Shown here: piece by piece, positions 5,309-54,382 of the stretch
Layout: every line of letters starts with the position of its first letter
Position numbering within the stretch: position 1 is the first letter of the stretch
DNA from: a bacterium
GTDB lineage: Bacteria; Patescibacteriota; Patescibacteriia; JAHIZJ01
Direction of reading: 5' to 3'
NCBI GenBank assembly: GCA_030699685.1
Contig: JAUYLJ010000007.1
Location: forward strand, 1 to 60,087
Length of the DNA stretch: 60,087 bases
Translations under genes and position numbers: made by a program
The notes under the pieces: generated by a model
What the model was told of the DNA's origin: nothing
What the model saw: only the letters and a program-made list of their open reading frames with translations
The model's database searches: none

Positions 5309-6645
5309 GGCGATTCAGTTAAGAACAGCTCTGCCGATGTCCATCCGTCGATGGGTATATCTTGCGCGTAAACTTCATAGCCGGCGGCAGTTACCTCAAC
5401 GGTATAGGTGGAGTTCGCGAGGTTTGAAAAAAACGTTTGTCCATAACTAGTGGTTGTTTGCGTCGCGTCGTAGAGGGGAGCGGCATTGGTTACATGTACG
5501 GACGCGTTTTCAATCAATGCTCCGCTTTCGCCTCGCGCCGTCACTAGCAAAGAATGATCGGTGTGGGGCGCAACGTATATGTCCAACGTTTGATTGGATC
5601 CGGGCAAAAGATTTATCGGCAAAGGCAAGTTGGCTCCGGCGATATCATATCCTGACAGAGCGCCGTCAATCGACAAAGTATACGTATCCCATTCCATGTC
5701 ATTCAGCGTGATGACGCCAGTTGCGTCCGTGGCGTGTGCTAGTTGGTATTTGTAGATGGGTTGTTCAGCGCCGTCGGTGCCGATCGTTTTTGATCCCCGA
5801 AGAGAAAAATCAATATTGCCTATGGCCGACTCATCCAGGTTGCGTGTTTGGATAGTCAAGGCGCTTAGTTGATCGATAGTGAAACTATGCTCTGTCACGA
5901 TGCCGTCAAAAATGCTGATTGGCGGGGGATTTGGATTCGGGTTATTCACCGGATCGGTTTCATGGGTTTGATCGGTGCTATAGCCGGCTTTTGTCACCAC
6001 AATATCGTAGGTTTCTACGGATGGGGTCATGCCGGGGAGAATGAGTTTTCCGGTGACTGTAGTTTGAGTATCGAGATTGATGACGGGAACAACGTCAGTA
6101 TTCTCTAGGTGCACGTCCGCTGTCGGCACAATATTACCCAGGGCGTCAAACACAGTTAAATTCAGCGTCCCGCCGGTGATATCCGATTCGATGCCTTTCG
6201 GCGCGATATCGCTTATGAAGATAACGGGCGAATCGTTGAGCGCGCGTGGCCAAGCTACTTCAACCCGGACGCGCTTGTAATCGGAATTGAACAAGTCGTC
6301 AGGCACTTCTCCCGCGAGACCGTCAAAAGGGTCATCAATATACATGACGTCCGTGGTCACGGTGTAGGAAATCCTGTTGCGTACTATTTCTTCCGTGCGG
6401 GGGATCGTACCGGAAGGTACTCCGCCTTCGGTCCCTACGTCGTCATAGCGAAGGTTTCTCACCATTTCCAGGCGCTGATTGGCGATGGCCGTGGCATCCA
6501 CGCGCGCCCTGGTGTCCGACGTCACCCGGGTTGCGAGATTAAACAATGAGTATATTCCCACCATTGTAATACTGAAAATCGCCAGCGCGACAAGCACTTC
6601 AATAATAGTCATGCCTTGCTGGTTGTAGCGGAGATTGCTCATCAA
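5305..6645 (-). CDS. Prepilin-type minor pilin (PilV-like) with a long beta-sandwich-repeat C-terminus (446 aa)
   Basis: QGMTIIEVLVALAIFSITMVGIY is a prepilin motif. Downstream segments resemble carboxypeptidase-regulatory-like repeats (GNIVPTADVHLEN, ALIENASVHVTN). Confidence 0.75.
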   Translation of the reverse strand: MMSNLRYNQQGMTIIEVLVALAIFSITMVGIYSLFNLATRVTSDTRARVDATAIANQRLEMVRNLRYDDVGTEGGVPSGTIPRTEEIVRNRISYTVTTDVMYIDDPFDGLAGEVPDDLFNSDYKRVRVEVAWPRALNDSPVIFISDIAPKGIESDITGGTLNLTVFDALGNIVPTADVHLENTDVVPVINLDTQTTVTGKLILPGMTPSVETYDIVVTKAGYSTDQTHETDPVNNPNPNPPPISIFDGIVTEHSFTIDQLSALTIQTRNLDESAIGNIDFSLRGSKTIGTDGAEQPIYKYQLAHATDATGVITLNDMEWDTYTLSIDGALSGYDIAGANLPLPINLLPGSNQTLDIYVAPHTDHSLLVTARGESGALIENASVHVTNAAPLYDATQTTTSYGQTFFSNLANSTYTVEVTAAGYEVYAQDIPIDGWTSAELFLTESP

Positions 6646-7862
6646 AAAGTTTCAACAAGATTATACATCGGCATGATGATGGCAATGGCGATGAAGCCTA
6701 CTCCGACACCCAGGATCAACATTAACAACGGTTCAATAATCGTGGCGAGGCTGGCCATGGTTTGTTCCACGTCGTCTTCGTAAAAGATCGCCACTTCCTC
6801 AGAGATAGTATCAAGCGTCCCGGATTGTTCACCCACGTTGACTATCTGGGTGACGACTGGCGGAAAAAGCTTGGGATACCTCTCCAATACCGTCGTGACA
6901 TTGACGCCTTGCTTCACTTCTTCGGCGGCGATTTTCATCACATCCTGATAGTACACGTTTCCTAGCGTGGTGCTGATGATTTCAAAGGCCTTGACGATTG
7001 GTATGTCGGTCTTGAGCAGCGAGCTGAGCGTACGGGTAAAGCGTGCGAGATTAATCTTCTTGATAATCTTTCCAAAAATTGGCGATCGCAGGAGCAGTGC
7101 TTGCCAGATGCGTTTCCCTCGCCTGGTTTGGATAGCTCGGAAGAACGCGAAGATCAGTAGAACGATCCCGACAATTACTAAAATGGCGTTTTGAGAAGCG
7201 AAGTCGCTGGTACGGATCAATAGTTTAGTTGCTAACGGCAGTTCTACCGAAGTCTCCGAATACAAGCTGGTGATTTTCGGGATAACGAAAATAAACATGG
7301 CAATAGAGATGCCAACCATGGCCACGAGAATGACCGCGGGATAAGTAAGCGCGCTCTTCACTTTTGCAATCAGGCCGTGATCTTTTTTCATCTGGATGGT
7401 CAATCGCTTGAGCACGGATTCGAGCTGACCGGAAACTTCGCCGGCTTCAATCATGTTGACGAAAATAGGAGGAAATATTTTGGGATATCCACGAAGCGTG
7501 CTCGCCAGTGTTTTGCCTTTTTCTACTTCTGAGCAGAGTTTTGTGATAACTTTCGAGAAATACGGATTGGAGGTTTGGAGTCCCAGCGTTTTGAGAGCTC
7601 GAGCCAGGGAGAAGCCGGTTCGCACCATCACTTCGAGGTTCTGAGTGAAGAACATCTTATCGACCATGGAGATGCGGCTCAGTTTGTCTACCCAGGTGAT
7701 GGCGCCGGAGCTCGTCTTTTTGTTCGCTATCTCCTTGGCCGAGACATAGCGCAGGCCCTTTGTTGAAATTTTTGCCTGGAGTTCGGAAAGATTGGCGGCT
7801 TCCATGGTATCTTTCACCGTGCTCCCATTGCTAAGTTGAGCTGTGTAAATGTATTTTGGCAT
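6642..7862 (-). CDS. pilC: Type IV pilus platform protein PilC (GspF family)
   Basis: 406 aa with two GspF-type repeats and three TM blocks. It is adjacent to pilB. Confidence 0.9.
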   Translation of the reverse strand: MPKYIYTAQLSNGSTVKDTMEAANLSELQAKISTKGLRYVSAKEIANKKTSSGAITWVDKLSRISMVDKMFFTQNLEVMVRTGFSLARALKTLGLQTSNPYFSKVITKLCSEVEKGKTLASTLRGYPKIFPPIFVNMIEAGEVSGQLESVLKRLTIQMKKDHGLIAKVKSALTYPAVILVAMVGISIAMFIFVIPKITSLYSETSVELPLATKLLIRTSDFASQNAILVIVGIVLLIFAFFRAIQTRRGKRIWQALLLRSPIFGKIIKKINLARFTRTLSSLLKTDIPIVKAFEIISTTLGNVYYQDVMKIAAEEVKQGVNVTTVLERYPKLFPPVVTQIVNVGEQSGTLDTISEEVAIFYEDDVEQTMASLATIIEPLLMLILGVGVGFIAIAIIMPMYNLVETF

Positions 7863-9593
7863 TTAGTCTTTGGTTACGCGGAGCACCTCTTCCACTGAAG
7901 TGATTCCAAGTTTTGCCTTGATAAATCCGTCCTCAAGCATGGTGATCATTCCCTTCTCTGCGGCTTTTTCAAGAAGCGCCTCGTTGGTGGCGTTGCGCGT
8001 GATCATATCGGCGATCTCGTGATCGATTTCCAGCACTTCGTAAATTCCAATCCTGCTTTTATAGCCACTATTGTTGCATTCGCGACAGCCTTTGCCCCGG
8101 TAAAAAAGGAGATCCTGGAGTCCCGTTTCTGACTTGGAAATAGCGTCTTCGCGCTCCATGGCCCGCAGGACTTCTTTGACATTCAGTTGTTTTTCAAGCT
8201 CGCGTATTGCCTTTGTGCTCAGGTTATAGCTGGTGATACAATTGGGGCAGATTTTTCTGACCAGGCGCTGGGCCATAACTAGGTTGGTGGTGGTAGCGAC
8301 CAGAAATGAAGGAATATTCATCTCACGCAATCGCGGGAGCGCTCCAACCGCGTCGTTGGTATGGAGCGTGGATAATACGAGGTGGCCGGTCATGGCGGCG
8401 TTAACCGCGATCTCGGCGGTCTCATTGTCCCGAATTTCTCCGACCATGATGATGTTAGGGTCTTGGCGAAGCAGCGCGCGGAGTCCACCGGAAAAGGTAA
8501 AGCCGATCTTCGGGTTAACCTGGCTTTGATTGACGCCGGGCATCCGGTATTCGATCGGATCTTCCACCGTGGAAATATTTACACCCGGCTTGTTCAAAAT
8601 ATTCAAAATGGTGTAGAGGGTAGTCGTTTTTCCGGAACCCGTGGGGCCGGTAACCAGGATCATGCCGTGTGGTTTTTGGACGTTGCGCTTAACCAAGTCA
8701 TAGGCTTTGGAAAGAAAACCCAGCTGCTCCAGTGTCAGTATTTGCGCTGATTCATTCAGCAGGCGAAGCACAACCTTCTCTCCGTCGTAGACTGGGATGA
8801 TGGAGACGCGAAAGGCGACCTTATACTCGTCCGTTGAGACTTTGAACCTGCCGTCTTGCGGGAGGCGGTGTTCGTCGAGTTTGAGGTTGGCTAGAATTTT
8901 GATACGGGCAACGACGCCGGATTGGATTTTTTTCGGCAGGGTCATCACTTCCCGCAGAATGCCATCGATGCGGTAGCGGACAATAACTTCTTTTTCCGTC
9001 GGCTCTATGTGGATATCAGACGCGCTCTCATAAATCGCGTATTCGAGCAAGGTATCAACGATGCGGATGATAGGAAGATCCTGCGCGAGTTTTTTCAGGT
9101 CTTTTTGATCGGCTGCTCCTTCTTCCTCGCCCGGCTTAGATATCTCCTGGAACTTGGCCTTGATTCCTTTGTGATATTGCTTGAGAGCTTCTTTCAGCGA
9201 GCTGGGTGTGGTGACAAAGATCTCAGGACGAAGGTTCGTTTTCTTTTTGATGAATTCGGCGATCTCAAGATCAGTGGGGTCAGCCATGGCCAGCTTGATG
9301 TTTTCTTCATCTTTTTCAAAGGCAATTATTTGATGGGACTGGACGATGGCTTCAGGGATGATTTGCAGCAAGTCTTTCCGAATAGGTTTTCTTTCTAGGT
9401 TTACAAAAGAAACACCGTAGAAGCTAGCGATGCTTTCGTACAATCCGTTTTCCGACAACACTTTTTGGCGGACGAGGTATTCAGTCAGTGAAATCGACTC
9501 ATTTGCCGCCTCCGTGATTGCCTTTTTGAGGTCTGCCTCCGGAAGTATCTTTGATTTGAGGACTATGTTTTGTATTTGTTCTTGATTCAGCAT
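7863..9593 (-). CDS. pilB: Type IV pilus assembly ATPase PilB (GspE family)
   Basis: Walker A GPTGSGKTT, IMVGEIRD, the His box TGHLVLSTLHTN, and the tetracysteine CPNC...CRECNNSGY. Confidence 0.92.
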   Translation of the reverse strand: MLNQEQIQNIVLKSKILPEADLKKAITEAANESISLTEYLVRQKVLSENGLYESIASFYGVSFVNLERKPIRKDLLQIIPEAIVQSHQIIAFEKDEENIKLAMADPTDLEIAEFIKKKTNLRPEIFVTTPSSLKEALKQYHKGIKAKFQEISKPGEEEGAADQKDLKKLAQDLPIIRIVDTLLEYAIYESASDIHIEPTEKEVIVRYRIDGILREVMTLPKKIQSGVVARIKILANLKLDEHRLPQDGRFKVSTDEYKVAFRVSIIPVYDGEKVVLRLLNESAQILTLEQLGFLSKAYDLVKRNVQKPHGMILVTGPTGSGKTTTLYTILNILNKPGVNISTVEDPIEYRMPGVNQSQVNPKIGFTFSGGLRALLRQDPNIIMVGEIRDNETAEIAVNAAMTGHLVLSTLHTNDAVGALPRLREMNIPSFLVATTTNLVMAQRLVRKICPNCITSYNLSTKAIRELEKQLNVKEVLRAMEREDAISKSETGLQDLLFYRGKGCRECNNSGYKSRIGIYEVLEIDHEIADMITRNATNEALLEKAAEKGMITMLEDGFIKAKLGITSVEEVLRVTKD

Positions 9594-29203: not shown

Positions 29204-29635
29204 ATGAACCTTAATAAAGCGTCCATCATCGGGAATCTGACAAAAGACCCGGTCAGCCGGACACTGCCGTCAGGTCAGTCGATCACCACCTTTTCAGTGG
29301 CGACGAATCATGTCTGGCGGGACAAGTCCCAGAACAAGAAGGAATCGACGGAATTCCATAACGTCGTCGCCTGGGGCAAACTCGGCGAGATCTGCGGTCA
29401 GTACTTGAAAAAAGGCGGCAAGGTCTACGTCGAAGGCCGTTTGCAGACCCGAAACTGGGAAGATTCCAAGACCAAGGTCCGCAAATCGCGCACTGAAATT
29501 GTGGCGGATGAGCTGATCATGCTCGGTCACGTCAGTTCCAAGAAAGACGAGCAGAATGACAGCATCCGACAAGAAACTCTGGCGCGCGAGGAAGTCAATG
29601 CCGAAGAGTTGCCGGTAGAAGAAAACGCGTCGTAG
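29204..29635 (+). CDS. ssb: Single-stranded DNA-binding protein
   Basis: OB-fold signature (NKASIIGNLTKDPVSRTLPSGQSITTFSVATN, TEFHNVVAWGKLGE) and an acidic C-terminal tail. Confidence 0.93.
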   Translation: MNLNKASIIGNLTKDPVSRTLPSGQSITTFSVATNHVWRDKSQNKKESTEFHNVVAWGKLGEICGQYLKKGGKVYVEGRLQTRNWEDSKTKVRKSRTEIVADELIMLGHVSSKKDEQNDSIRQETLAREEVNAEELPVEENAS

Positions 29636-36864: not shown

Positions 36865-36901
36865 GGTATGTGTTTTGAAATATGGAAGGGGTTTCAGCTA
36901 A

Positions 36902-36951
36902 CGTTTCGGTATCATGCGAAGTTGCGTAGCAATCTGGGTGTTTACGAAACG
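36902..36951. repeat. Hairpin CGTTTCG-N36-CGAAACG. Its 5' context (AACGTTTCGGTATCAT) matches the repeat family at 40.9-42.2 kb.
   Basis: AACGTTTCGGTATCAT against AACGTTTGCGTATCAT (copy B) gives 14 of 16 identical positions. Confidence 0.5.
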
Positions 36952-36969
36952 GGCTAATGACCTAATTCT

Positions 36970-37359
36970 TTACGAATGTTCTTTGAAAAATGGTTTGAAG
37001 TATAGCTCTATTTTTAATTTGCATATCTCATCTTTGGTAGCCCATCGTTGTTCTATATGTTCTTCGCTTAGTGTAAGATCTCCAGAAATTATTTCAGTTG
37101 AGTAAATCGTAAAACGATGAGTATTGTCCCCTTTATTATCCAAATCAAACTCGTATACGCCAAGAATCTCAAGCGGTTGAATATCTAAACCAGTTTCTTC
37201 TTTTACCTCACGGGCAATACCAGCCAAGGGGTTTTCATCGGGTTCAAGTTTGCCGCCGGGAAAATCCCAATGCAGGGGAAAATACTTGGCGTTTTCAGAT
37301 CGTAAGCCAATCAAGTACTTGTCACCTTTTTTCACAACTGCTTTTTGAATGAGATTCAA
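36970..37359 (-). CDS. Nudix hydrolase
   Basis: Nudix box GGKLEPDENPLAGIAREVKEETGL. TTG start. Confidence 0.85.
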   Translation of the reverse strand: MNLIQKAVVKKGDKYLIGLRSENAKYFPLHWDFPGGKLEPDENPLAGIAREVKEETGLDIQPLEILGVYEFDLDNKGDNTHRFTIYSTEIISGDLTLSEEHIEQRWATKDEICKLKIELYFKPFFKEHS

Positions 37360-37416
37360 AAGAATTTACATTAATTGTATAGCCCCGAAGTGAGAAGCTG
37401 ATGTCGTATACTTCGT

Positions 37417-37428
37417 GTTAGGCGATGG
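37417..37428. repeat. Conserved 12-mer GTTAGGCGATGG, copy 1. It contains the canonical integron core GTTAGGC (GCCTAAC on the gene strand).
   Basis: Identical to 38104-38115. It is part of the hairpin GCC..ACGAAGT-N18-ACTTCG.GGC on the minus strand. Confidence 0.6.
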
Positions 37429-37442
37429 AACACACCACATGG

Positions 37443-37738
37443 ATGACTGCTTTGAGAGGGTGGGGAGGAATTTCCTCCCCAGAGGGTTGGGTTATTGATT
37501 GACTATCCGCAATGCCGCCTTGGCAGCTTCCTCCATGGTTTTGCCGTAGCCGCGGACATCGTGACTTTCTGCTGCCGGGAGATTGTCGAGCCGAGCCCTT
37601 CCCCTTCCAATTAAGCGGACTTGGAAGGGAGATGGACAGTTCGGATTGTGGTGTAATGAGAACGTTCGCTCACACAGTTGTCTTGTATATGTCTCCACAG
37701 AGCACCTCCTTATATCCAAACCCTCTCAAAGCAGTCAT
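37443..37738. repeat. 19-bp perfect inverted repeat (ATGACTGCTTTGAGAGGGT / ACCCTCTCAAAGCAGTCAT) bracketing a 75-codon ORF
   Basis: The arms are at 37443-37461 and 37720-37738. The GGGGAGG-aattt-CCTCCCC hairpin at 37462-37480 lies just inside the left arm. Confidence 0.85.
37492..37719 (-). CDS. Small hypothetical protein (75 aa, TTG start), possibly HicB/UPF0150-like
   Basis: The C-terminal GYGKTMEEAAKAALRIV resembles the G.G.T.EEA...A...I motif of HicB-type antitoxins. This is a weak call. Confidence 0.35.
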   Translation of the reverse strand: MDIRRCSVETYTRQLCERTFSLHHNPNCPSPFQVRLIGRGRARLDNLPAAESHDVRGYGKTMEEAAKAALRIVNQ

Positions 37739-37801
37739 TGTAAAAAGAGTTCTTTCACCTAAGGTTTGCGTATAACACGCAGTGTTATATAAAGTACTAT
37801 A

Positions 37802-38062
37802 TTATTTCCACTCTATTATGTACATGCCGTATTTTTCTAATTCTTCTTGTGGCCAATATCTTGTTGGGCTTTCATGTTTTAGAACTTTTTTTACCTTTCG
37901 TGTATATTCACGGCCGGTATATTCTTTTGTCTGCGGATCCCATTCTCGGAATTTTATTTGATCACCATCTTGCAGGTCAAAATCCGCTAATTTAAAATCG
38001 TTTGAGGTGTTTTTATCGAGGTCAAAATAGTCTGGCCACAATTTCTTTTCTACGGTTTTCAT
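37802..38062 (-). CDS. DUF3850 (ASCH/PUA-like) domain protein
   Basis: KLWPDYFD...DGDQIKFREWDPQTKEYTGREYTRKV is the typical DUF3850 pattern. Confidence 0.75.
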   Translation of the reverse strand: MKTVEKKLWPDYFDLDKNTSNDFKLADFDLQDGDQIKFREWDPQTKEYTGREYTRKVKKVLKHESPTRYWPQEELEKYGMYIIEWK

Positions 38063-38103
38063 ACGTTTAATGGGAAGAAATAGTACGGTATTTTATAAGC
38101 CAT

Positions 38104-38115
38104 GTTAGGCGATGG
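38104..38115. repeat. Conserved 12-mer GTTAGGCGATGG, copy 2, starting 3 nt after the Nudix stop on the gene strand
   Basis: Identical to 37417-37428. Confidence 0.6.
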
Positions 38116-38117
38116 TA

Positions 38118-38534
38118 TTATTCACTATGTTTAAATGGATTAAAACCTTGTTTAATGAGATTCTGTTCGGAAATGAATAGGGGTTGTGGCGGGTTAGTCC
38201 AATCAAACCATGACCATTGCTCACATTTTTCCGGTTCCATAATTTGCAGATCACCCGAATTATATTCCGCGGTCATAAATATAGTGATGTAGTGTTTGCC
38301 TTCAACCGGGAAAATGTCGTTGGTAGCAGTAGCAAAGTTTACATTTTTAATGCTCAAACCAGTCTCTTCCAATGTTTCACGCACCGCACATTCTTCCCAT
38401 GGCTCATTAAATTCAAGATGACCGCCAGGAAAACACCACGAACCATCACCATGAGCATTTTTACGTTTACCAAAGAGAACTTTGCCATCTTTTACAATGA
38501 GAACCCCAACCCCGACTTTTGGTCTATTGTCCAT
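38118..38534 (-). CDS. Nudix hydrolase (MutT-like)
   Basis: Nudix box GGHLEFNEPWEECAVRETLEETGL. Confidence 0.88.
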   Translation of the reverse strand: MDNRPKVGVGVLIVKDGKVLFGKRKNAHGDGSWCFPGGHLEFNEPWEECAVRETLEETGLSIKNVNFATATNDIFPVEGKHYITIFMTAEYNSGDLQIMEPEKCEQWSWFDWTNPPQPLFISEQNLIKQGFNPFKHSE

Positions 38535-38646
38535 ACATTTAAATATTATTTACTTAGACGGTTTCAGGAATTTAGTGAAACGAGTTTGTTAAATACTTCA
38601 TGAGGTTTGTGGAAGTTAGTGTGAATTTCATTTTTCAAATTATGTC

Positions 38647-40740
38647 TTATTTATTTACTTTCAAAAATTTTGCATTAATAGCTACAATAACTGTACTTAA
38701 GGACATTAGCGCCGCTCCTATAGCAGGGGAGATTAAGATTCCATAACCATACAACACTCCAGCAGCTAGAGGTATGGCAACTACGTTGTATCCAGTTGCC
38801 CAGAATAAGTTTTGAATCATTTTACTGTACGTTGCTTTTCCAAACAAGATTAGAGAAGTAACATCTTTTGGATTGCTGTTTACTAATATTATATCTGCCG
38901 TTTCAGCGGCAACGTCTGTCCCTGATCCGATAGCTATTCCAATGTTTGCTTGTGCTAGGGCAGGAGCATCGTTGATGCCATCTCCAGTCATAGCGACAAA
39001 TTCTCCTTTGCTTTGGAGTTCTTTGATTTTTTCTAATTTCTCATGTGGCAGTACTTCTGCAAAAAATCCTTCTAGTTTTAATTTCGTAGATACTGTTTTG
39101 GCGATTACTTTATTGTCTCCTGTTAACATCCAACATTTTATTCCAGACTCTTGAAGTTGTTTAATCGCCTCATATGATTCAGGCCTTATTTTGTCTGCAA
39201 GTGTAATAACTCCGACTGCTTTGTTGTCCACTATTACATAGACTAATGTTCCGCTATCATCAATTTCTGAAGCTGGAATGTTTACATTGTTCTTTGTAAT
39301 GTATTTTTGGCTTACAAGTTTGACAGTTTTTCCGCTTACTTTTCCTTCTACACCTTCTCCTTTCATTACTTTGAAGTCTGTTGCTTTAACATCTTCAGCG
39401 CCAATCTGTTTTGCTTTGGCAATTATTCCTTTAGCTATTGGATGTTCTGAATTCTTTTCAAGTGATGAGGCTAACTCAATTATTTGCTTTTCATTGTGGC
39501 TTTTGTCAAATATTGCAATTGCAGCGACTCCAAATTTTCCTTCGGTTAATGTTCCTGTTTTATCAAATATAATTGTTGATATTTTTCTTGAGTTTTCAAA
39601 TGCTGTTCTGTTCCTTATCAATAAACCATTCTTAGCAGACAATGAAGTAGAGACAGCGCTTACCAAAGGAATAGCTAATCCCAGAGCATGAGGACATGCA
39701 ATAACCATGACTGTAACCATCCTTTCTATGGCAAAGGCTGTGTCAATACCATAAATAATCCAAAAGGCAAACGTGCCCACGCCTGTTGTTACTGCAACGA
39801 TAGACAGCCATTTCGCTGCAACATCAGCCAGCCTTTGTGTTTTAGATTTTGATGCCTGAGCATCTTTAACAAGATTGATGACTTTATTAAGATAAGATTC
39901 TTCCCCCGTGCCTTCAACCGTAACTTCCAGAATTCCATCTCCATTGATAGAGCCACCTATAACCTTATCATCCTTCTTTTTCTGGACAGGTTTTGATTCC
40001 CCAGTAAGCATTGACTCATCAAGATAGCTATTTCCTTTTACAATAATACCGTCAGTGGGAACTTTCTCTCCTGCCTTGACAAGAATAATATTTCCTTTTT
40101 TCAGCTCAGAAATTTTAACATCTATTGTTTTTCCATTTTGAATTAAATGAGCAGTATCTGGCAATAACTGAGCTAATTTTTCCAAGGCCTTCGATGCTCC
40201 TAAAACAGATTTCATTTCAATCCAATGTCCAAGAAGCATCACATCAATAAGTGTGGCTAATTCCCAGAAGAAAAACTTCCCCCGTAATCCGAATACGACA
40301 GCAGTGCTATAAATGTAAGCGACAAAAATAGCCAACGCTATTAATGTCATCATGCCTGGCTGTTTCTTTTTTAGCTCTTCAAAAATGCCTTTAAGAAATG
40401 GCCATCCTCCGTAAAAGAATATGAAGCTTGATAATATCCATAAAACATATTTATCTCCTGCAAAACTGTAACTTATGCCAAGAAACTGCTGTATCAATGG
40501 GGACAAAAGGAGAATAGGGATTGTGACAATGATTGAGACTAAAAATCTTTTTTTGAAGTCTCTTACCATGTGCTTGTGATGCTCTGAGTGGTCATATTTT
40601 TTGTGCATTGATTGACTATGATCAGATGATTTGTCATCCTCTATTTTGCTAAGTTTAGCACCGTCCATAGTGCACTTTCCTGGCTTGTCATATTCCATTC
40701 CGCATTTTGGACATTTGTATTTATTCATATTAGCCACCAT
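38647..40740 (-). CDS. copB: Copper-translocating P1B-type ATPase (CopB-like, CPH motif) with an N-terminal zinc-ribbon and a His-rich segment
   Basis: TGES, CPH (ACPHALGLAIP), DKTGTLT, GDGINDAPAL, N-terminal CPKCG...GKC, and SDHSQSMHKKYDHSEHHKH. Confidence 0.9.
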   Translation of the reverse strand: MVANMNKYKCPKCGMEYDKPGKCTMDGAKLSKIEDDKSSDHSQSMHKKYDHSEHHKHMVRDFKKRFLVSIIVTIPILLLSPLIQQFLGISYSFAGDKYVLWILSSFIFFYGGWPFLKGIFEELKKKQPGMMTLIALAIFVAYIYSTAVVFGLRGKFFFWELATLIDVMLLGHWIEMKSVLGASKALEKLAQLLPDTAHLIQNGKTIDVKISELKKGNIILVKAGEKVPTDGIIVKGNSYLDESMLTGESKPVQKKKDDKVIGGSINGDGILEVTVEGTGEESYLNKVINLVKDAQASKSKTQRLADVAAKWLSIVAVTTGVGTFAFWIIYGIDTAFAIERMVTVMVIACPHALGLAIPLVSAVSTSLSAKNGLLIRNRTAFENSRKISTIIFDKTGTLTEGKFGVAAIAIFDKSHNEKQIIELASSLEKNSEHPIAKGIIAKAKQIGAEDVKATDFKVMKGEGVEGKVSGKTVKLVSQKYITKNNVNIPASEIDDSGTLVYVIVDNKAVGVITLADKIRPESYEAIKQLQESGIKCWMLTGDNKVIAKTVSTKLKLEGFFAEVLPHEKLEKIKELQSKGEFVAMTGDGINDAPALAQANIGIAIGSGTDVAAETADIILVNSNPKDVTSLILFGKATYSKMIQNLFWATGYNVVAIPLAAGVLYGYGILISPAIGAALMSLSTVIVAINAKFLKVNK

Positions 40741-40869
40741 TTATAAATTAAAAGTTATAATCATTGTATTAGTACTGTTTTTAATAAACACATTTTATAA
40801 CGAAGTGGAGAGAACATATTATTAACCCCCTCATTTCTTATTCTCCGTTAGAAAAATATTTTTTGTGTT

Positions 40870-40935
40870 GCGTATAGCGTTTGTGTCTCATATGCTGTGT
40901 CGCGGAAGTGCATGGCAGATATACGCTGTTGTGCG
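40870..40935 (+). repeat. Structured repeat copy A (attC-like imperfect palindrome)
   Basis: GCGTATAGC-GTTT-GTGTCTCATATGC...GCAGATATACGC-T-GTTGTGCG. It aligns with copies B and C. Confidence 0.8.
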
Positions 40936-41039
40936 TTGATTTAGCTTTTCTTCCATTGACATTTTAGTGTAGCTGTGTCAACCTCTTCACAAGTGGTTTT
41001 AGTCCTTCTAGTTGATCATTCCTAAGGAGGGTGTTTCGT

Positions 41040-41342
41040 ATGCCAAAACTCAACATGTCTATTCGGCATCAGCTTCCGCGAGAGGAAGCGCTTACCCGCA
41101 TCCAGCGGTTGCTGGGCGAGGTGAAGAGAGAACAAGGTGACAAGATTAGTGATCTGCACGAACAATGGAGCGGCAACGCCGGTAACTTCAGCTTCAAGGC
41201 GGCGGGTTTCTCGGTTTCCGGTACTCTGGAGGTGACTTCTTCGGAAGTCAGGTTGAACGGCAATCTCCCGTTCGCAGCCAACTTTTTCAAGGGCAAGATC
41301 GAAAACACGATTCGTCAGCGGGCCCAGCAGCTACTGGCTTGA
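41040..41342 (+). CDS. Polyhydroxyalkanoic acid system (PHA_gran_rgn) family protein
   Basis: MPKLNMSIRHQLPREEALTRIQ...SGTLEVTSSEVRLNGNLPFAANFFKGKIENTIRQRAQQLL fits the family pattern. AAGGAGG lies 9 nt upstream of the ATG. Confidence 0.7.
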   Translation: MPKLNMSIRHQLPREEALTRIQRLLGEVKREQGDKISDLHEQWSGNAGNFSFKAAGFSVSGTLEVTSSEVRLNGNLPFAANFFKGKIENTIRQRAQQLLA

Positions 41343-41364
41343 AGTTCTCTAGACCATCCCGTGA

Positions 41365-41394
41365 GGGTCCTGCACATCGGACCCTATTTTTTTT
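41365..41394 (+). terminator. Rho-independent terminator
   Basis: GGGTCC-tgcacatc-GGACCC followed by TATTTTTTTT. Confidence 0.8.
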
Positions 41395-41406
41395 AAAGAC
41401 GAATTG

Positions 41407-41471
41407 GCGCACAACGTTTGCGTATCATCTGCTGTGTCGCAGTAGCGCATGGCAGATATACACTGTTCAAA
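41407..41471 (+). repeat. Structured repeat copy B
   Basis: GCGCACAAC-GTTT-GCGTATCATCTGC...GCAGATATACAC-T-GTT. Confidence 0.8.
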
Positions 41472-41486
41472 ATATTTTCTTCAAAT

Positions 41487-42131
41487 TCACAAAATGGGCT
41501 TTGATCTCGCAATTTTCCATACTGCCAATGTGCTGTATCCGATAGAAAGAATTGCAAGTAAAATGACAATCGCTAGAGTATTAATACCGACTGGAAGTTT
41601 TAATGGTGCAGATATTAATAGTCCTATGCTTACCACAATGGTGACGGCTAGGAGAACAATTGAGGATTTTAGCATTGAATAGATTCTATTTTTTAGCCTG
41701 ATATTACTTTCGAGAAGGTCGGCCATCCTATTGCTCCATCTTTTTCTTTCATCATGGTCTAGTCTTACGCCGTTATCCATATTAAAAGAGCCTTGTTCCT
41801 GCATCGTAAGTATTCTCACGCCTTCGAGTTGTTGGTAGAGTTCTACAATACCATTTCTATCAAAGACCTCCTCTGCATTATCAGTCACGATTCTTTTGTA
41901 TTCACCAAGTATTTCCTCTTCCGACTTGTCAATAAACTCATCTGGCGCCCTTGCTCCTATACGCCAGAGCTGAACTATGCGCACCACCCTACCACGATAA
42001 TTATCGATGGCCGTTTGCACTTTATCGAGCTTAAACACTACGAATGTGCCTCCTAATGCAAGTATAGCAGCGCATGTTTGTGAAATAGTGCTCAAGGTAT
42101 AGAACCATGTACTTGATTCAGTGAAATTCAT
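41487..42131 (-). CDS. Three-TM membrane protein with a central cytoplasmic helical domain, unknown function
   Basis: 214 aa, with 1 TM at the N-terminus and 2 TM at the C-terminus. A+T-rich. Flanked by a 15-bp inverted repeat. Confidence 0.55.
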   Translation of the reverse strand: MNFTESSTWFYTLSTISQTCAAILALGGTFVVFKLDKVQTAIDNYRGRVVRIVQLWRIGARAPDEFIDKSEEEILGEYKRIVTDNAEEVFDRNGIVELYQQLEGVRILTMQEQGSFNMDNGVRLDHDERKRWSNRMADLLESNIRLKNRIYSMLKSSIVLLAVTIVVSIGLLISAPLKLPVGINTLAIVILLAILSIGYSTLAVWKIARSKPIL

Positions 42132-42155
42132 ATTATTGAGAAAATATTTTGAATG

Positions 42156-42215
42156 GCGTACAACGTTTGCGTCTCATCCGAAGTATTCAATATTTCGGAT
42201 AGACGCTGTTGTGTG
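42156..42215 (+). repeat. Structured repeat copy C
   Basis: GCGTACAAC-GTTT-GCGTCTCATCCGAA-gtattcaata-TTCGGATAGACGC-T-GTTGTGTG. This forms a 13-bp stem with a single bulged C plus an outer ACAAC/GTTGT stem. Confidence 0.85.
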
Positions 42216-42226
42216 GAGTTGACCGG

Positions 42227-42808
42227 CTACTTCTTCAGGCATTCATTTAGAAGTTCTGGAAATTCGACGGTTCCTAAGTCGTCAAGACAAAAATGCCCTT
42301 TATTAGCAAATTCTCGATATGTCACCTGATCAATGTTTTCTCGAATTAGAGCGACTGTTTTTAGAATACTTCCATCATCATTTGTTGAGTAAAAAACAGT
42401 AACACCGCTGGTCCGTGAAACAAGACCCCGATCCATTGAAAAGTCAAAGAAATCTGCTGTGTCAGAGCGAGGGTTATTGGAAGGGTTCGTCCAGGGTGCA
42501 ACGAGGATTACCTTACCGACACGGAGATCTGGATGTTCGCTGAGATATCGGATAAGAAAACCACCGCCACAGCTGTGTCCAACGAGCATTGTTTCAGCAG
42601 TCAGCTCAAAACGCTCCAACTCTTTTTTCCATACAGTATAGCGTGGTTGCCACGGTGTTGGGATTTCGAGTGCGACGGTAAAAATATCCTTGAGTATCAA
42701 TTGCTTTGAAAGCCAAGGAAACCAATGATCGTTACTATTCGTTGGGCGCGCCGGATCGTAATATTCGTCTTGATCAGGTCGTCCGGGGATTAAAATCGCG
42801 TTTCTCAT
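42227..42808 (-). CDS. YdeN/RBBP9-family serine hydrolase (alpha/beta fold)
   Basis: MRNAILIPG...HWFPWL...LVGHSCGG (GxSxG)...ILVAPW. Start trimmed from 42919 to M38. Confidence 0.75.
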   Translation of the reverse strand: MRNAILIPGRPDQDEYYDPARPTNSNDHWFPWLSKQLILKDIFTVALEIPTPWQPRYTVWKKELERFELTAETMLVGHSCGGGFLIRYLSEHPDLRVGKVILVAPWTNPSNNPRSDTADFFDFSMDRGLVSRTSGVTVFYSTNDDGSILKTVALIRENIDQVTYREFANKGHFCLDDLGTVEFPELLNECLKK

Positions 42809-43016
42809 AAACTTAGATGATGTTGGTAGCCGGTCAATTTCACACAACTCGTTTTTTAGCGAACCAGTCTCACCTCTACCCACCATAGTTGCATGAAAAA
42901 CAGAATAAGGCCAGAACATATGTCATTCCGCTGAAAAGGCTCAATTACGCTAACCTATATTGACAGTTAGCCTCCATCCGGCTACCCTGGAATCCCGCAT
43001 GTTGCCTTTGACATGC

Positions 43017-43556
43017 TTATTCAGCTCGCTTCCGCGTGCTTTTGTTCCCGGCTGACCTACTCAGTCGGGATTTTTTATTTTTGGAGAGATGCTTAATAAA
43101 AGCTTGTCCGTAGGGAGTAAATCCAGCCTTGGTATAAAAGGCGTGAGCGCGTTTCAGCTCAGCACTGGATTCGAGACGTATCGAATCAATATTTTCTTTA
43201 CGCGCCCATTGTATTGCCGCGGCCAGCAGTCGTTGCGAAACACCCTTGCCTTGCCGGGATTTTTTGACGAACATTTCTTCAATCTCCGCGCAATACCCGC
43301 CCTTTCTTATCTGGGGAATTTTGTAGATGGTCAGTATGCCGATGTAGCTATTTTTTTCTTGCGCTAAAAAGATGGCCGAATCAGGCGAGGCAAGAACGTG
43401 ATCAAAAAGTTCTCCGCCTTTCTTCTGAGCGGATGTTGAAACGAATTTCTTCCCCGGTTCAATGATGGCCATACAAGCCGCACGGAAATCATCAAGCAAC
43501 CGGAGGACGTGTTTTTTATGAGAGCTTTTGGCTCGCAATATTCTCATCTTCTTCAA
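43017..43556 (-). CDS. GNAT-family N-acetyltransferase, coupled to the hydrogenase large-subunit gene
   Basis: Motif A is RQGKGVSQRLL. The TTG start overlaps the hydL stop (TTGA). An alternative ATG lies at 43547. Confidence 0.8.
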   Translation of the reverse strand: MKKMRILRAKSSHKKHVLRLLDDFRAACMAIIEPGKKFVSTSAQKKGGELFDHVLASPDSAIFLAQEKNSYIGILTIYKIPQIRKGGYCAEIEEMFVKKSRQGKGVSQRLLAAAIQWARKENIDSIRLESSAELKRAHAFYTKAGFTPYGQAFIKHLSKNKKSRLSRSAGNKSTRKRAE

Positions 43557-48260: not shown

Positions 48261-48389
48261 TGATGGTGAGTATAGCACTGGATTTGTAGCTTGAAAAGCA
48301 TTACCGTGCGCGCGAGGCTGTACATTGTTTTTTTGCAAAATATATGCTATACTCATATCACGTTGGAGGAAAAATTAATAAAAGAATAC

Positions 48390-51353
48390 ATGAGTTTTAG
48401 ATCGAAACGCAGCGCGATTATCCTGTCTATCGCGGTTTTTGCAGTATTTGGGTCATTGCTTCCGGCCGCTATTCAGGCCGCGTATGGCGATACCAGCACC
48501 TTCATGGGACGAAGCTATACCGGCGATGGAGGAGACGAGCTCGATGGGTATCTCGACATGCCGATGGGCTTCACGGTCTCATCGGATGGCACGTTTTATA
48601 TTGCCGATTCGGTCAATACAGTCGTGCGAAAAATAAGCCCCTCCGGCACACTTTCCACATATGCCGGGACGGGTGAATACGGCTTGATCAACGGCTCGCG
48701 CCAGCTTACCCAGTGGGGAGAGCCGGAAGCAATTGCGCGTGACGCTTCGGATGGAGCGCTCTACATCGCCGATACGGCAAATAATGTCATCCGCAAGATC
48801 TTTAATAATGAAGTGACCACCCTAACTATTTCCGGTGATACCGCTTTGCTCACACCGAAGGGTATTCACGTAAGCGGTGATACTCTCTATATCGCTGACA
48901 CGGGCAACAATCGTATTGTGAGTGTCTCTAAAACCGGCGGAAGCATGATGGTGCTGGCAACCGGACTCTCGACACCGTTGAAGCTGGTAAAAGAAGGCGA
49001 CTTCCTTTATGTGGCCGACTTCACTTCGGGCAACATCGTCAAGGTCAATGTTCCCGCCAAATCAAAAACTGTTTTGGCCGATGATTTCACCGAGCCACGG
49101 GCGGTGGCCATATACAATGACAATCTGTATGTTGCCGCCGGCGAAAATGGCGTGTGGAACGAGATTTGGCGCGTAGCCCTTTCAAGCGGCGCTAAAACAG
49201 AACTGGCTATTCGTCGGGAAACGACCCTGCTTAACAATGCTTCTGATATGCTGATCAAGGAAGAAAGTGGCGCGCCCTATATCTATCAGCTGCATGGCGG
49301 TGGTTCGACAATCTGGAAATTTGATATCAATGGTCAGAATGAAGAGCAAGTCGCCGGTAAGAACCGCTTTGGTGACGAAATGGGAGCACGGGCCAGCGCC
49401 CTGTTGGGACGGCCTCAAGCGCTCGTTGCTTCGCCCAATGGCAAGAAAATATACATCGCTTACGCTCAAGGCAATAAAATCGCCGAATATTCGACTTCGA
49501 CTGGCTTGGTGCGCGTAGTGGCTGGCTTCCTTCGCGACAGCTACACGGAAGGGACAGGCGAAGAAGCTCGGTTCAGCGATGTGGTCAGTATGGTTATCTC
49601 GCTAGACGGTAAAACACTCTACTTGGCTGACAGAAATAATAACCGAATCCGCACGCTGAATGTTGAAACCGGCGCCTCCGACTACCTGACAGGCGCTGGT
49701 AACATCAACTCCACTGGAAATACCGATAACGGCTATCAAGAAGGTGGCCCCTGTGCCGATGAATTGGACACTGGAGTATCTGGCTGTGCGTATTTCAATA
49801 GACCGACAGGCATCGCGTTAACCGGTGACGGGAAAACGCTCTATATCGCTGACGGCAGCAACAATAGAATTCGCAAAGTGACGGTGGCTACGGGCCAAAC
49901 CTCTTTGGTCGCTGGTTCGGGTGTAGCGGGGCTTGCGAACGGTACTGGCGCGGCGGCAAAGTTTAACGGACCCTACACGGTCGCGTTGTCGGCTGATAAT
50001 TCGAAGCTGTATGTCGCGGATAAATACAATCACGCCATTCGGGAAATAAATCTCTCAAACAATTCTGTCAGCACGTTGGTCGGAACAGGATCCATTGGAT
50101 ATCGGGAGGGCGACTTTGCTACCGCGGTACTGGCCATCCCAGAGTACATTCAGCGGGGGCCTGACGGAAATCTCTATTTGAGCGAGGCGGGCAGTCTGCG
50201 TGTACGCAAACTTGATTTGAACAGCCGAACAAGCTCTCTGGCCTCCGGCAACGGAAGCCGCGGACAGCATAATGGCAGCAGCGCTGCCGCCGAATGGAAC
50301 GCACCCAAAGGCATGGCCTTTCTCGGTCAATCGCTGTTGGTAGCTGATTTCCGCAATGATCTTATCCGTTCCATCGATCTTGGTAATACCATCCCTGGTC
50401 CGCTAGACACAATTCGCGAAGCTAAACAGCAGTTCATGGCGTATAGCCCCTCGCTTCGAGGAGGCTACTTCGTCACCGCCGGCGATGTTACCGGCGGCCC
50501 GAAAGAGGAGATAATTATGGGCACCGGCCCGGGCTTCGGACCGCATGTTCAGGTCTTCAATACCTCAGGCACGGCCTATACCTCGTTCTTTGCCTACGCT
50601 GAGCATCTTCGCTCCGGTGTGCGCGTCGCTACCGGTGACGTCGATGGAGATGGGCGTGAAGAGATCATCACTGCCGCCGGACCGGGTGGCCGGCCGCACA
50701 TCAGGATATTTAACGGAGACGGCACGCTGAAAAGTTCAGGCTTCTTCGCCTTGGACGGTGAGTTTAAAGGCGGGGTCTTCATTGCTTCAGGCGACGTCAA
50801 TGGTGACGGAAAAGCCGAAATTATAGTCACTGCCGGCAAGGGAGGCGGTCCGCAGGTGACCGTTCATCGCGCGGATGGCTCAATGATCGCCAATTTCTTC
50901 GCCTATGACGCCACCTTTCGTGGCGGTATCGCGGTTGCCGTTCTCGACACCAACAACGACGGCAAGGATGAAATATTGACCGGACCGGAATCAGGCGCTC
51001 CGCATATCCAGACCTTCTCAGTGGAAAAAAACTCCGTTCGCCGCCTCAACCCCGGCTTCTACGCTTTCAGTCCCGATTATAGAGGAGGAGTTAGTCTGGT
51101 TGGAGGCGATTATGACGGAGACGGCCGGGATGAAATAATCGTCGGCGTTGGAGAAAATGCTGAGCCTCATGTCAAAGTCTACAACAAAACCGGTTCAATC
51201 CTGATTGATGAATTTCGCCCCTACGCGCGTGCGGTGACAGGAGGGGTGAATGTTTCAGCCGGTGATGTCGATGCTGACGGTATCGATGAGGTGCTCGTGG
51301 TTCCGCGATCGGGCGGTGGCCCGCAGGTTCGCGTAATCGAGCCTGAAAACTAG
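48390..51353 (+). CDS. Large secreted NHL-repeat / FG-GAP (VCBS)-repeat protein
   Basis: Signal peptide MSFRSKRSAIILSIAVFAVFGSLLPAAIQA. There are repeated LYIADxxNNxIRK units (NHL) followed by repeated GDVDGDGxxEII..GPGGGPxV units (FG-GAP). Confidence 0.85.
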   Translation: MSFRSKRSAIILSIAVFAVFGSLLPAAIQAAYGDTSTFMGRSYTGDGGDELDGYLDMPMGFTVSSDGTFYIADSVNTVVRKISPSGTLSTYAGTGEYGLINGSRQLTQWGEPEAIARDASDGALYIADTANNVIRKIFNNEVTTLTISGDTALLTPKGIHVSGDTLYIADTGNNRIVSVSKTGGSMMVLATGLSTPLKLVKEGDFLYVADFTSGNIVKVNVPAKSKTVLADDFTEPRAVAIYNDNLYVAAGENGVWNEIWRVALSSGAKTELAIRRETTLLNNASDMLIKEESGAPYIYQLHGGGSTIWKFDINGQNEEQVAGKNRFGDEMGARASALLGRPQALVASPNGKKIYIAYAQGNKIAEYSTSTGLVRVVAGFLRDSYTEGTGEEARFSDVVSMVISLDGKTLYLADRNNNRIRTLNVETGASDYLTGAGNINSTGNTDNGYQEGGPCADELDTGVSGCAYFNRPTGIALTGDGKTLYIADGSNNRIRKVTVATGQTSLVAGSGVAGLANGTGAAAKFNGPYTVALSADNSKLYVADKYNHAIREINLSNNSVSTLVGTGSIGYREGDFATAVLAIPEYIQRGPDGNLYLSEAGSLRVRKLDLNSRTSSLASGNGSRGQHNGSSAAAEWNAPKGMAFLGQSLLVADFRNDLIRSIDLGNTIPGPLDTIREAKQQFMAYSPSLRGGYFVTAGDVTGGPKEEIIMGTGPGFGPHVQVFNTSGTAYTSFFAYAEHLRSGVRVATGDVDGDGREEIITAAGPGGRPHIRIFNGDGTLKSSGFFALDGEFKGGVFIASGDVNGDGKAEIIVTAGKGGGPQVTVHRADGSMIANFFAYDATFRGGIAVAVLDTNNDGKDEILTGPESGAPHIQTFSVEKNSVRRLNPGFYAFSPDYRGGVSLVGGDYDGDGRDEIIVGVGENAEPHVKVYNKTGSILIDEFRPYARAVTGGVNVSAGDVDADGIDEVLVVPRSGGGPQVRVIEPEN

Positions 51354-53554: not shown

Positions 53555-54382
53555 ATGGAACCAATTTTACTGCCCAACAGTATCAATGTCGAAACAGGCG
53601 ACGAGAATCAAGGAATTTTTACTATTGAGCCGTGCTATCCCGGCTATGGAACCACTCTGGGAAACGCTCTTCGGCGAGTTCTTCTTTCCTCGCTTGACGG
53701 TTCGGCGATTACGGCAGTTAAAATAAAGGGCGCAAGTCATGAATTTTCTGCCATCCCGGGAGTAAAAGAAGACGTGGTTGATATCATACTAAATCTGAAA
53801 AGCGTCAAAATTAAATGTCATTCTGACGAGCCGGTTACGGTCACCATAAAAGAAAAAGGGGAGAAAAAGGTAACGGCAAAAAGCATCAAAACCAGCAATG
53901 ACGTGGAAGTGGCCAACGGCGATCAGCTGATTGCCACACTGACTGACGCTTCCACCGAATTTGAAATGGAACTGACGGTGGAGCGGGGTCGGGGCTACAT
54001 GCCGGTGGAAAATAGAGAAAAGGAAAATCGTGATATCGGCATGATTGCCATTGACGCTGTCTATACTCCGGTGCGAAACGTCAACTTTGAGGTGGAAAAC
54101 GTTCGCGTCGGCCAGATGACGAATTTTGATAAACTAACATTGGACGTCATCACTGACGGGACTATGACCCCGGAGGAAGCGGTGTCAAAGGCCGCTGAAA
54201 TTCTCCGTGATCATTTTGTCAGCATTGCCGACGCGATCGATGTCGGTGACGGGAAGAAAGAAAAGGAAGAGGTATCTGAGAAAAAGAGCGCCAAATCCGC
54301 TGAGGCTGCCGAACCGAAGAAGAAAGCGGGTCGCCCGAAAAAATCAGAGGCCAAGGAAAAGAAGTCCGAAGAAGCCGAATAA
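53555..54382 (+). CDS. rpoA: DNA-directed RNA polymerase alpha subunit. The N-terminal domain is followed by a Lys/Glu-rich tail, and no recognisable alpha-CTD is present.
   Basis: The alpha-NTD reads FTIEPCYPGYGTTLGNALRRVLLSSL. The protein ends at 275 aa with ...KKEKEEVSEKKSAKSAEAAEPKKKAGRPKKSEAKEKKSEEAE. Confidence 0.9.
   Translation: MEPILLPNSINVETGDENQGIFTIEPCYPGYGTTLGNALRRVLLSSLDGSAITAVKIKGASHEFSAIPGVKEDVVDIILNLKSVKIKCHSDEPVTVTIKEKGEKKVTAKSIKTSNDVEVANGDQLIATLTDASTEFEMELTVERGRGYMPVENREKENRDIGMIAIDAVYTPVRNVNFEVENVRVGQMTNFDKLTLDVITDGTMTPEEAVSKAAEILRDHFVSIADAIDVGDGKKEKEEVSEKKSAKSAEAAEPKKKAGRPKKSEAKEKKSEEAE

Follow-up and report, generated by a model that had tools for sequence, protein, structure and literature searches.

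The 60,087-nucleotide stretch of DNA analysed here, referred to as the window (contig JAUYLJ010000007.1 of GenBank assembly GCA_030699685.1), comes from a member of the Patescibacteria, or candidate phyla radiation (CPR), and contains three copies of a short structured repeat, sites A, B and C, whose resemblance to the attC recombination sites of integrons raises the question of whether this chromosome carries a system for collecting gene cassettes. Integrons are the main gene-capture platforms of bacteria. Analysis of the window and of related public sequences indicates that A, B and C are probably attC-type sites at the integrase-proximal end of an integron-like cassette array occupying approximately 36.9-42.9 kb of this Patescibacteria chromosome.

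The three copies of the original prediction are borne out by a repeat search of the window, in which A and B form a 61-nt pair (84% identity) and A, B and C a 25-nt family, and by a covariance model (R1) built from these copies and eight public copies, which scores A (40868-40939), B (41405-41476) and C (42154-42219) at 75.4, 78.5 and 75.0 bits, with E-values of 1e-17 to 1e-18; a second model (R2) built from 81 copies gives A 58.1 bits and C 72.4 bits. All three lie on the + strand, with spacings of 537 nt (A-B) and 749 nt (B-C). With filters off, the R1 matches that rank next in the window are C and B themselves, read on the opposite strand, along with a truncated copy at 37753-37795 (E 0.05); no further match comes near the scores of A-C, and R2 gives the same picture. 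A naive scan of the window for AAC...GTT combined with folding ranked C and B high and was too unspecific to reveal further sites. No tRNAs were found.

Site C is intact (AAC at 42162-64, GTT at 42208-10, short terminal loop) and folds as single-stranded DNA exactly as originally drawn (-15.7 kcal/mol, z -5.4); site B (AAC at 41413-15, GTT at 41465-67, one C.A mismatch in the L-box stem) folds that way in part (z -1.9); the fold drawn for site A does not stand (z -0.25), this copy being degraded, with AGC instead of AAC at 40876-78 in its left box, two broken stem pairs and a right-box GTT at 40928-30. Finer details of the predicted structure are present: the GTTT-versus-T asymmetry between the stems, which one G.T pair turns into a TTT bulge; the bulged C, seen in all three copies; the covarying position that is A-T in B and C-G in C, and a C.T mismatch in A; and the alternative distal stems CTGC/GCAG and CCGAA/TTCGG.

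An exact pattern spanning both arms recovers 31 loci in public data, most of them from Patescibacteria, namely 23 metagenome contigs and 8 species-representative genomes, the latter comprising five metagenome-assembled genomes (MAGs) of Patescibacteria, two titled Gammaproteobacteria and one unclassified; the pattern has no match in viral contigs, and site C with its flanks has none in plasmids. A covariance-model search of these loci identifies 81 sites at E<1e-4. The sites of any one locus share one strand and are spaced by a few hundred to approximately 2000 nt, the largest arrays having about ten sites in 7.6 kb (locus L019) and eight in 5 kb (L030). AAC is found in 79 of the 81 copies and GTT in 79-81, with flanks that fit the R/Y pattern of attC boxes (RYYYAAC ... 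GTTRRRY) only loosely, and the terminal loop ranges from about 10 to more than 130 nt. Standard pairs fill 94% of the paired cells of the 81-copy alignment, and 14 of 22 pairs show compensatory (double) changes; the covariation score is reached by none of 500 shuffles, and sliding the partner by 1-3 columns lowers pairing to 21-46%. The alignment is model-fitted, which favours structure; an effect this large, with so many kinds of pair (for example AU, CG and GC at one position), goes well beyond the bias of such a fit. The covariation originally noticed in three copies thus holds when the search is widened.

The sites also mark gene boundaries, as the original prediction had implied. In 52 of the 55 intervals between sites, the longest open reading frame (ORF) is carried by the strand that was not modelled (p 1.5e-12), typically with its stop codon within about 25 nt of a site; the order is therefore gene then site, with the folding strand non-coding, as in integrons, and the coding strand of the array in the window is the minus strand. 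In this respect the original prediction, which used the opposite strand, needs correction: the plus-strand cassette to which it applied the integron model, carrying a PHA-like gene, is an inverted exception. The non-coding strand is kept foldable, as G.T pairs far outnumber A.C pairs (249 versus 23 cells) and 94% of cells are paired on the modelled strand versus 81% on the other.

This polarity bears on whether the repeats act at the RNA level, as terminators or stabilizing 3'-untranslated-region hairpins of the upstream genes. Stable hairpins situated a few to a few tens of nucleotides past stop codons are what such a role would produce, but the foldable strand is the non-coding one, so that a transcript would contain the mismatched version; the coding strand has no T-run after the hairpin; a terminator scan picks the terminator of the PHA-like gene and neither B nor C; Rfam at gathering thresholds yields no match; and the invariant AAC/GTT boxes and the complementarity between sites described below would have no role in termination. 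We regard a function in RNA as highly improbable.

Evidence for exchange of DNA between sites comes from the boxes themselves. When the 7 bases past the GTT of each site are compared with the complement of the 7 bases before the AAC of the next (51 adjacent pairs), the mean match is 4.98/7, with at least 5 matches in 37 pairs, versus 3.48 for the box of the same site, 3.39 for reversed boxes and 3.22 +/- 1.27 for random pairs (Mann-Whitney p 3e-7). The cassette-exchange signature, first proposed from the A-to-B junction of the window, is thus general across the public arrays, and recombination at the AAC/GTT triplets between sites would leave exactly such a pattern.

Each junction in the window shows it. 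At the A-to-B junction, GTTGTGCG (40928-35) pairs exactly, at 8 of 8 positions, with CGCACAAC (41408-15), as claimed. The B-to-C junction, which had been thought to break the rule, does not: the right box of B, GTTCAAAATATTTTCT (41465-80), complements AGAAAATATTTTGAAT (42139-54) at 15 of 16 positions once a 10-nt offset is allowed, AGAAAATATTTTGAAT sits directly 5' of the left box of C, and a 10-nt remnant, GGCGTACAAC, intervenes ahead of the site C hairpin. The motif AGAAAATATTTTG, correctly noted to accompany the elements (42139-51 on the + strand, 41468-80 on the - strand, and a version with two mismatches at 40852-64), is explained by this adherence of the B-to-C junction to the rule with its 10-nt remnant. 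Beyond site C, the right box of that site (GTTGTGTGG...) is matched by ...CACACAAC at 42841-48, within a 23-nt inverted repeat, and its complementarity to the box of the attI-like site described below is 8/8.

The same observations weigh on the notion that the repeats are selfish intergenic elements spread by a transposase that recognizes the hairpin, akin to repetitive extragenic palindromic (REP) sequences and bacterial interspersed mosaic elements (BIMEs), REP doublets forming hairpins (REPINs) or miniature inverted-repeat transposable elements (MITEs). The copies are indeed short, palindromic, intergenic, multi-copy and present in several lineages, and a gene for an IS200/IS605-type Y1 transposase lies inside the array region of one related locus (L036). 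Against this, the copies of a locus all point the same way without exception, and each gene interval has one site, beside a stop codon; A-C are clustered in the window, not dispersed; there are no target-site duplications, and no Y1 transposase was seen near the sites in the window; above all, a box is complementary to that of the next site and not to its own partner, a pattern that transposition does not give. Such an origin is very unlikely.

On the reading of A-C as sites of a cassette array, the array should have an integrase-proximal end, and related genomes show what stands there. In these, a conserved motif, TTTC-NNNN-AAC-TCGTTTYTATRCGAAY, is found 95-132 nt upstream of the start of a tyrosine recombinase gene. 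The window carries the motif at 42838-42864 on the + strand (TTTCACACAAC TCGTTTTTTAGCGAAC) with two mismatches to the consensus, where 0 matches are expected (100 shuffles); it forms no hairpin, its left box complements the right box of site C, and it aligns with the motif upstream of the recombinase in loci L018, L033, L036, L037 and L055. In L018, L033, L036 and the window, the variable bases of the motif are complementary to the right box of whichever site lies nearest. This candidate attI-like terminal site stands exactly at the end of the first cassette, and beyond it the second conserved block and the recombinase gene are replaced in the window by other sequence.

The tyrosine recombinase adjoins the array in two of the related loci (L018, 1316-2128; L015, 13007 onward); an NCBIfam scan of ten mid-sized ORFs from related loci had found no integrase, and a motif scan later found these two. 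It is a protein of 270 aa with intact catalytic motifs, which scores 221 bits, in two stretches, on the NCBIfam integron-integrase model (TIGR02249), below the cutoff of 265, as well as 225 bits on a XerA-type model and about 185 bits on XerC and XerD. Its best match of solved structure is the integron integrase VchIntIA (2A3V, 149 bits), followed by the archaeal XerA-type proteins 4A8E (147 bits) and 5HXY (143 bits). In the alignment to 2A3V, residues 4-167 match 5-171 and residues 194-270 match 241-317; VchIntIA 171-241 is skipped, with 27 versus 70 residues, so that about 43 are absent where the IntI-specific region lies and the IntI-specific additional domain is missing from the recombinase.

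Homologues of the recombinase at 73-97% identity are very common in Patescibacteria, and five more independent contexts were fetched (L033/34, L036, L037/38, L055 and L056). In all seven contexts with upstream sequence, sites lie upstream on the recombinase strand and none lies downstream, with cassette genes divergent, as in the classical layout of an integron. None of the 57 fetched loci showed an IntI. Contigs with the recombinase (L039, L040, L056, L057 and many others) often begin 200-2800 nt upstream of it, and most homologues are on contigs of approximately 1 kb, which is consistent with assemblies breaking in variable or repetitive arrays. In L036 (16741-18105) and L057 (8169-9566) the recombinase gene is situated approximately 6-8 kb from dnaA, next to tsaE and leuS, near the presumed origin; L036 also has genes for an IS200/IS605-type Y1 transposase and an HNH nuclease (6192-6794 and 8496-9200) upstream of the recombinase, where cassettes are expected.

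Loss of the recombinase gene has a parallel elsewhere. Two contigs from sister samples, L012 (1-3165) and L015 (9811-12975), share 99.65% identity over an array of two sites and the attI-like region, as far as the start codon of the recombinase. Beyond that codon the recombinase gene follows in L015 and a BacA (UppP) gene in L012, a natural polymorphism for presence of the recombinase that parallels the window. It is likely that the array in the window is likewise a recombinase-less, partly decayed proximal end. With the recombinase gene missing from the window, the array is either frozen and decaying or supplied in trans by an enzyme encoded at another place in the genome. At 43046-43080 (+), inside the 3' end of a minus-strand GNAT ORF, a strong hairpin with a T-run resembles a terminator; its strand and side are those on which the end of the lost recombinase gene would be expected.

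The array coincides with a low-GC island at approximately 36-43 kb (36-45% GC versus about 50% around it), the genes of which are mostly on the minus strand (NUDIX, a 75-aa ORF, DUF3850, NUDIX, a P-type ATPase, a 214-aa ORF and a serine-hydrolase fold); the content of NUDIX, DUF3850 and hydrolase genes is typical of cassettes, and NUDIX and hydrolase genes recur as cassettes in other arrays. A decaying cassette array after loss of the recombinase would explain this 6-kb island. An exact-protein look-up of the flanking genes found one identical contig, which ends inside the array, and nothing for the hydrogenase; the Logan contig of the window (L009) also breaks inside the array.

Cassette 1, nearest to the attI-like site (42209-42848, minus strand), carries a Ser_hydrolase / alpha-beta hydrolase gene (Pfam; ORF 42227-42919, with a conserved ATG at 42808 as the likely start) between 23-nt terminal inverted repeats at 42208-30 and 42826-48. 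The hydrolase gene and its leader (42196-42848) are 85% identical at the DNA level to a cassette in another array (L007, 4002-4654), and the identity stops abruptly just past CACACAAC (42848), at the AAC box. L007 and L006 are MAGs titled Gammaproteobacteria. In L006 (record 'uncultured Gammaproteobacteria'), positions 105-433 are 70% identical in DNA to the SSB region of the window (29226-29554), and PMT_2/DUF2079 genes are present in L007. Both MAGs may be mislabelled as Gammaproteobacteria, and sharing of the hydrolase cassette across phyla is accordingly a tentative suggestion. Upstream of the shared cassette, L007 has a long nested hairpin (4655-4823; AGTTGCTGCTTCG...CGAAGCAGCAATT) that the family model misses, which suggests a second class of sites within the same arrays.

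Cassette 2 (41466-42164, minus strand) holds the 214-aa ORF (41487-42131, from the ORF list), which has no Pfam match, between terminal inverted repeats at 41465-80 and 42139-54 (15/16). Cassette 3 (40929-41415, plus strand) contains the PHA_gran_rgn gene (41031/41040-41342, Pfam), with the boxes GTTGTGCG and CGCACAAC at its borders; it is inverted relative to the array, one of the three orientation exceptions among the 55 intervals, and the gene has its own terminator-like hairpin at 41364-85, making the insert an inverted, self-contained unit bounded by matching boxes. Next to site A and still inside the island lies a P-type (E1-E2) ATPase gene (38647-40740, minus strand, Pfam, 36% GC), the cassette status of which is uncertain, since its 3' side (38536-38650) has no significant hairpin and no site was found there. 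The decayed distal part of the array (36865-38646, minus strand), delimited by Pfam, weak covariance-model matches and a box search, comprises NUDIX (36970-37359), the 75-aa ORF (37492-37719), DUF3850 (37802-38062) and NUDIX (38118-38534). Between these genes lie site remnants: a half-site (36892-36920), the truncated site (37753-37795) and two right boxes GTTAGGCGATGG (37417-28 and 38104-15). A 24-nt inverted repeat (37443-37466 and 37715-37738, 92% complementary) brackets the 75-aa ORF, which has no family match, and could mark either a small mobile element or the ends of a cassette with a different type of site.

In the mechanism that we propose, the non-coding strand (+ here), when single-stranded, would fold into a hairpin in which a TTT bulge of 3 nt separates an R-box helix (NNNN-AAC-G with T-GTT-NNNN) from an L-box helix of 11-13 bp that has one bulged base (C), the whole being closed by a variable terminal loop. 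A tyrosine recombinase would cut at the invariant AAC/GTT triplet; strand exchange between two sites would excise a cassette, and exchange between a site and the attI-like sequence would insert one, leaving each cassette with one half-box at either end, mutually complementary. The likely enzyme is the 270-aa IntI/XerA-like recombinase, the gene for which, in related genomes, diverges from the cassettes and starts 95-132 nt past the attI-like motif; the enzyme would presumably act on these sites, with the non-coding strand as the putative strand recombined and the triplet as the predicted position of crossover.

Several observations weigh against this account of the window. A motif scan and tblastn reveal no tyrosine recombinase anywhere in the 60-kb window; site A is degraded, and the damage to its boxes and to two pairs of the stem leaves it with a fold no more stable than that of shuffled sequence; and the sites to the left of 38.7 kb have all decayed to remnants with no significant folds. 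The hydrolase cassettes of the window and L007 carry different downstream hairpins, which is at odds with a simple unit of a gene plus its own attC, and the two homologous cassette pairs available among the fetched loci disagree as to whether the downstream or the upstream hairpin travels with the cassette. Homologues of the PHA-like gene are found in ten other loci with no sites nearby, and the gene is therefore not a recurrent cassette. The widespread and conserved 270-aa recombinase could be a housekeeping Xer protein that lies beside arrays for another cause. Finally, the unpaired bases of the hairpin are placed as the mirror of those in canonical attC and the recombinase has no IntI-specific domain, so that canonical IntI chemistry cannot simply be assumed. 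The integron model of the original prediction stands as regards the logic of sites and cassettes, with the correction that the window has no integrase and that the enzyme accompanying the sites in related genomes is no canonical IntI.

The mirror placement is a property of the whole family. On the non-coding strand, the 5' arm bears the TTT bulge in all 81 copies and a single bulged base in 59 of them (C in 47), and an unpaired base on the 3' arm occurs in one copy of 81. In canonical attC, extrahelical bases lie near L'', on the 3' arm of the bottom (non-coding) strand, and steer the choice of strand through contacts with the integrase (PMC5027507). A control on R100, in which intI1 is on the minus strand and aadA1 on the plus strand, gave the canonical arrangement: the coding strand of attC-aadA1 has its extra L-box base on the 5' arm. 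The family model scores attC-aadA1 at only 4-8 bits and does not tell its strands apart. Two criteria for the recombining strand thus conflict in the present family, foldability (G.T pairs) pointing to the non-coding strand and bulge position to the coding strand.

These differences bear on the simplest alternative, namely that A-C belong to an ordinary cluster of attC sites lacking an integrase (CALIN), with canonical sites left by, or served in trans by, a standard IntI encoded elsewhere, the mirror polarity and the short recombinase being incidental. Clusters of this kind are common and usually have no intI pseudogenes nearby (PMC4889954), only 60 kb of the genome is visible, and the generic features of attC are all present (AAC/GTT boxes, imperfect hairpin, co-oriented arrays, cassette signature); A-C, if accepted as attC, form a CALIN by the usual criterion (at least two attC within 4 kb, same strand, no intI nearby), and an adjacent intI with the additional domain, as in a complete integron, is found neither in the window nor in related loci. 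Set against this are the position of the unpaired bases, which in every one of the 81 copies is the 5' arm of the non-coding strand, the mirror of R100 attC-aadA1 and of the published consensus (PMC5027507); the neighbouring recombinase, which in seven of seven contexts is the 270-aa type, about 43 residues short at the IntI-specific region; and the lack of any IntI among the 57 fetched loci. An ordinary CALIN is unlikely on this evidence. Mirrored bulges and a recombinase devoid of the domain that reads bulges argue for a distinct variant and not a standard integron. Tentatively, and as a proposal somewhat short of probable, we suggest that Patescibacteria possess a gene-capture system of their own, with mirror-polarized attC hairpins, an attI-like site, a 270-aa recombinase intermediate between IntI and XerA and devoid of the domain regarded as essential for recognition of folded attC DNA, and exchange between distant lineages, which would be either a living relative of the transition from Xer to IntI or an independent solution to single-strand hairpin recombination.

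If this is true, cassette-based gene exchange extends to the CPR, with mirrored hairpins and a domain-less recombinase, and the evolution of strand choice and hairpin recognition from Xer-type enzymes could be examined in a natural case. IntI is defined by the additional domain around patch III (PMC9668308, PMC4889954), a definition that the paper on archaeal integrons also uses (PMC9668308), and conventional integron finders would therefore report these arrays as orphan attC clusters; such a system would show that 'orphan' clusters from metagenomic data can be parts of unrecognized platforms. The searchable literature, whose coverage is incomplete so that an earlier description is possible, holds no account of attC or integrons in Patescibacteria, CPR or Parcubacteria, nor of integron-like arrays with an integrase that lacks the additional domain.

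Elsewhere, the window carries an S13-S11-S4-RpoA-L17 cluster, in which RpoA (53555-54382) is only 275 aa long and has no Pfam match for the C-terminal domain; most of its closest relatives are equally short, which suggests a trait of the lineage. Those of its best relatives (60-69% identity) to which an organism name is attached are nearly all named as Patescibacteria. At 48749-49871, inside a 1020-aa ORF (48291-51353), there are four diverged direct repeats of 43 nt, probably protein-level repeat units unrelated to the array.

Among known systems, REP/BIME elements and their associated tyrosine transposases (RAYTs) resemble the present sites in that they involve short, structured, intergenic repeats, whereas the present sites are uniform in orientation, occur one per gene, have boxes complementary between sites and associate with a tyrosine recombinase, not a Y1 HUH enzyme. 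Xer systems and pdif modules likewise move or resolve DNA at short conserved sites, and the recombinase scores about equally on archaeal XerA and IntI models. Xer sites are double-stranded cores of approximately 28 bp with two 11-bp arms; the present sites, by contrast, are covarying hairpins of 60-200 nt in arrays, and in L036 and L057 the recombinase is near dnaA, not where a dif site would be expected. Like IntI (VchIntIA), the recombinase is encoded divergently from the cassettes beside an attI-like site and scores higher on the integron-integrase model than on XerC and XerD; unlike IntI, it has 270 aa, falls below the family cutoff of 265 and lacks the additional domain, which in IntI contacts the extrahelical bases of attC (PMC5027507). 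Complete integrons have been reported absent from ultra-small genomes (PMC4889954), whereas the hosts of the present arrays have such genomes. The arrays share with integrons their co-orientation, one promoterless-looking ORF per interval, half-box exchange between neighbours and a hairpin-less, putative attI-like site at the array end. The sites themselves share with attC the AAC...GTT triplets in inverted boxes and an imperfect hairpin with an R box, spacer, bulged L box and variable loop; they differ in bearing their unpaired bases on the 5' arm of the non-coding strand, the mirror of the canonical arrangement, and in a conservation of sequence that is unusually high across lineages, an exact 23-base pattern sufficing to recover copies in several classes of Patescibacteria.

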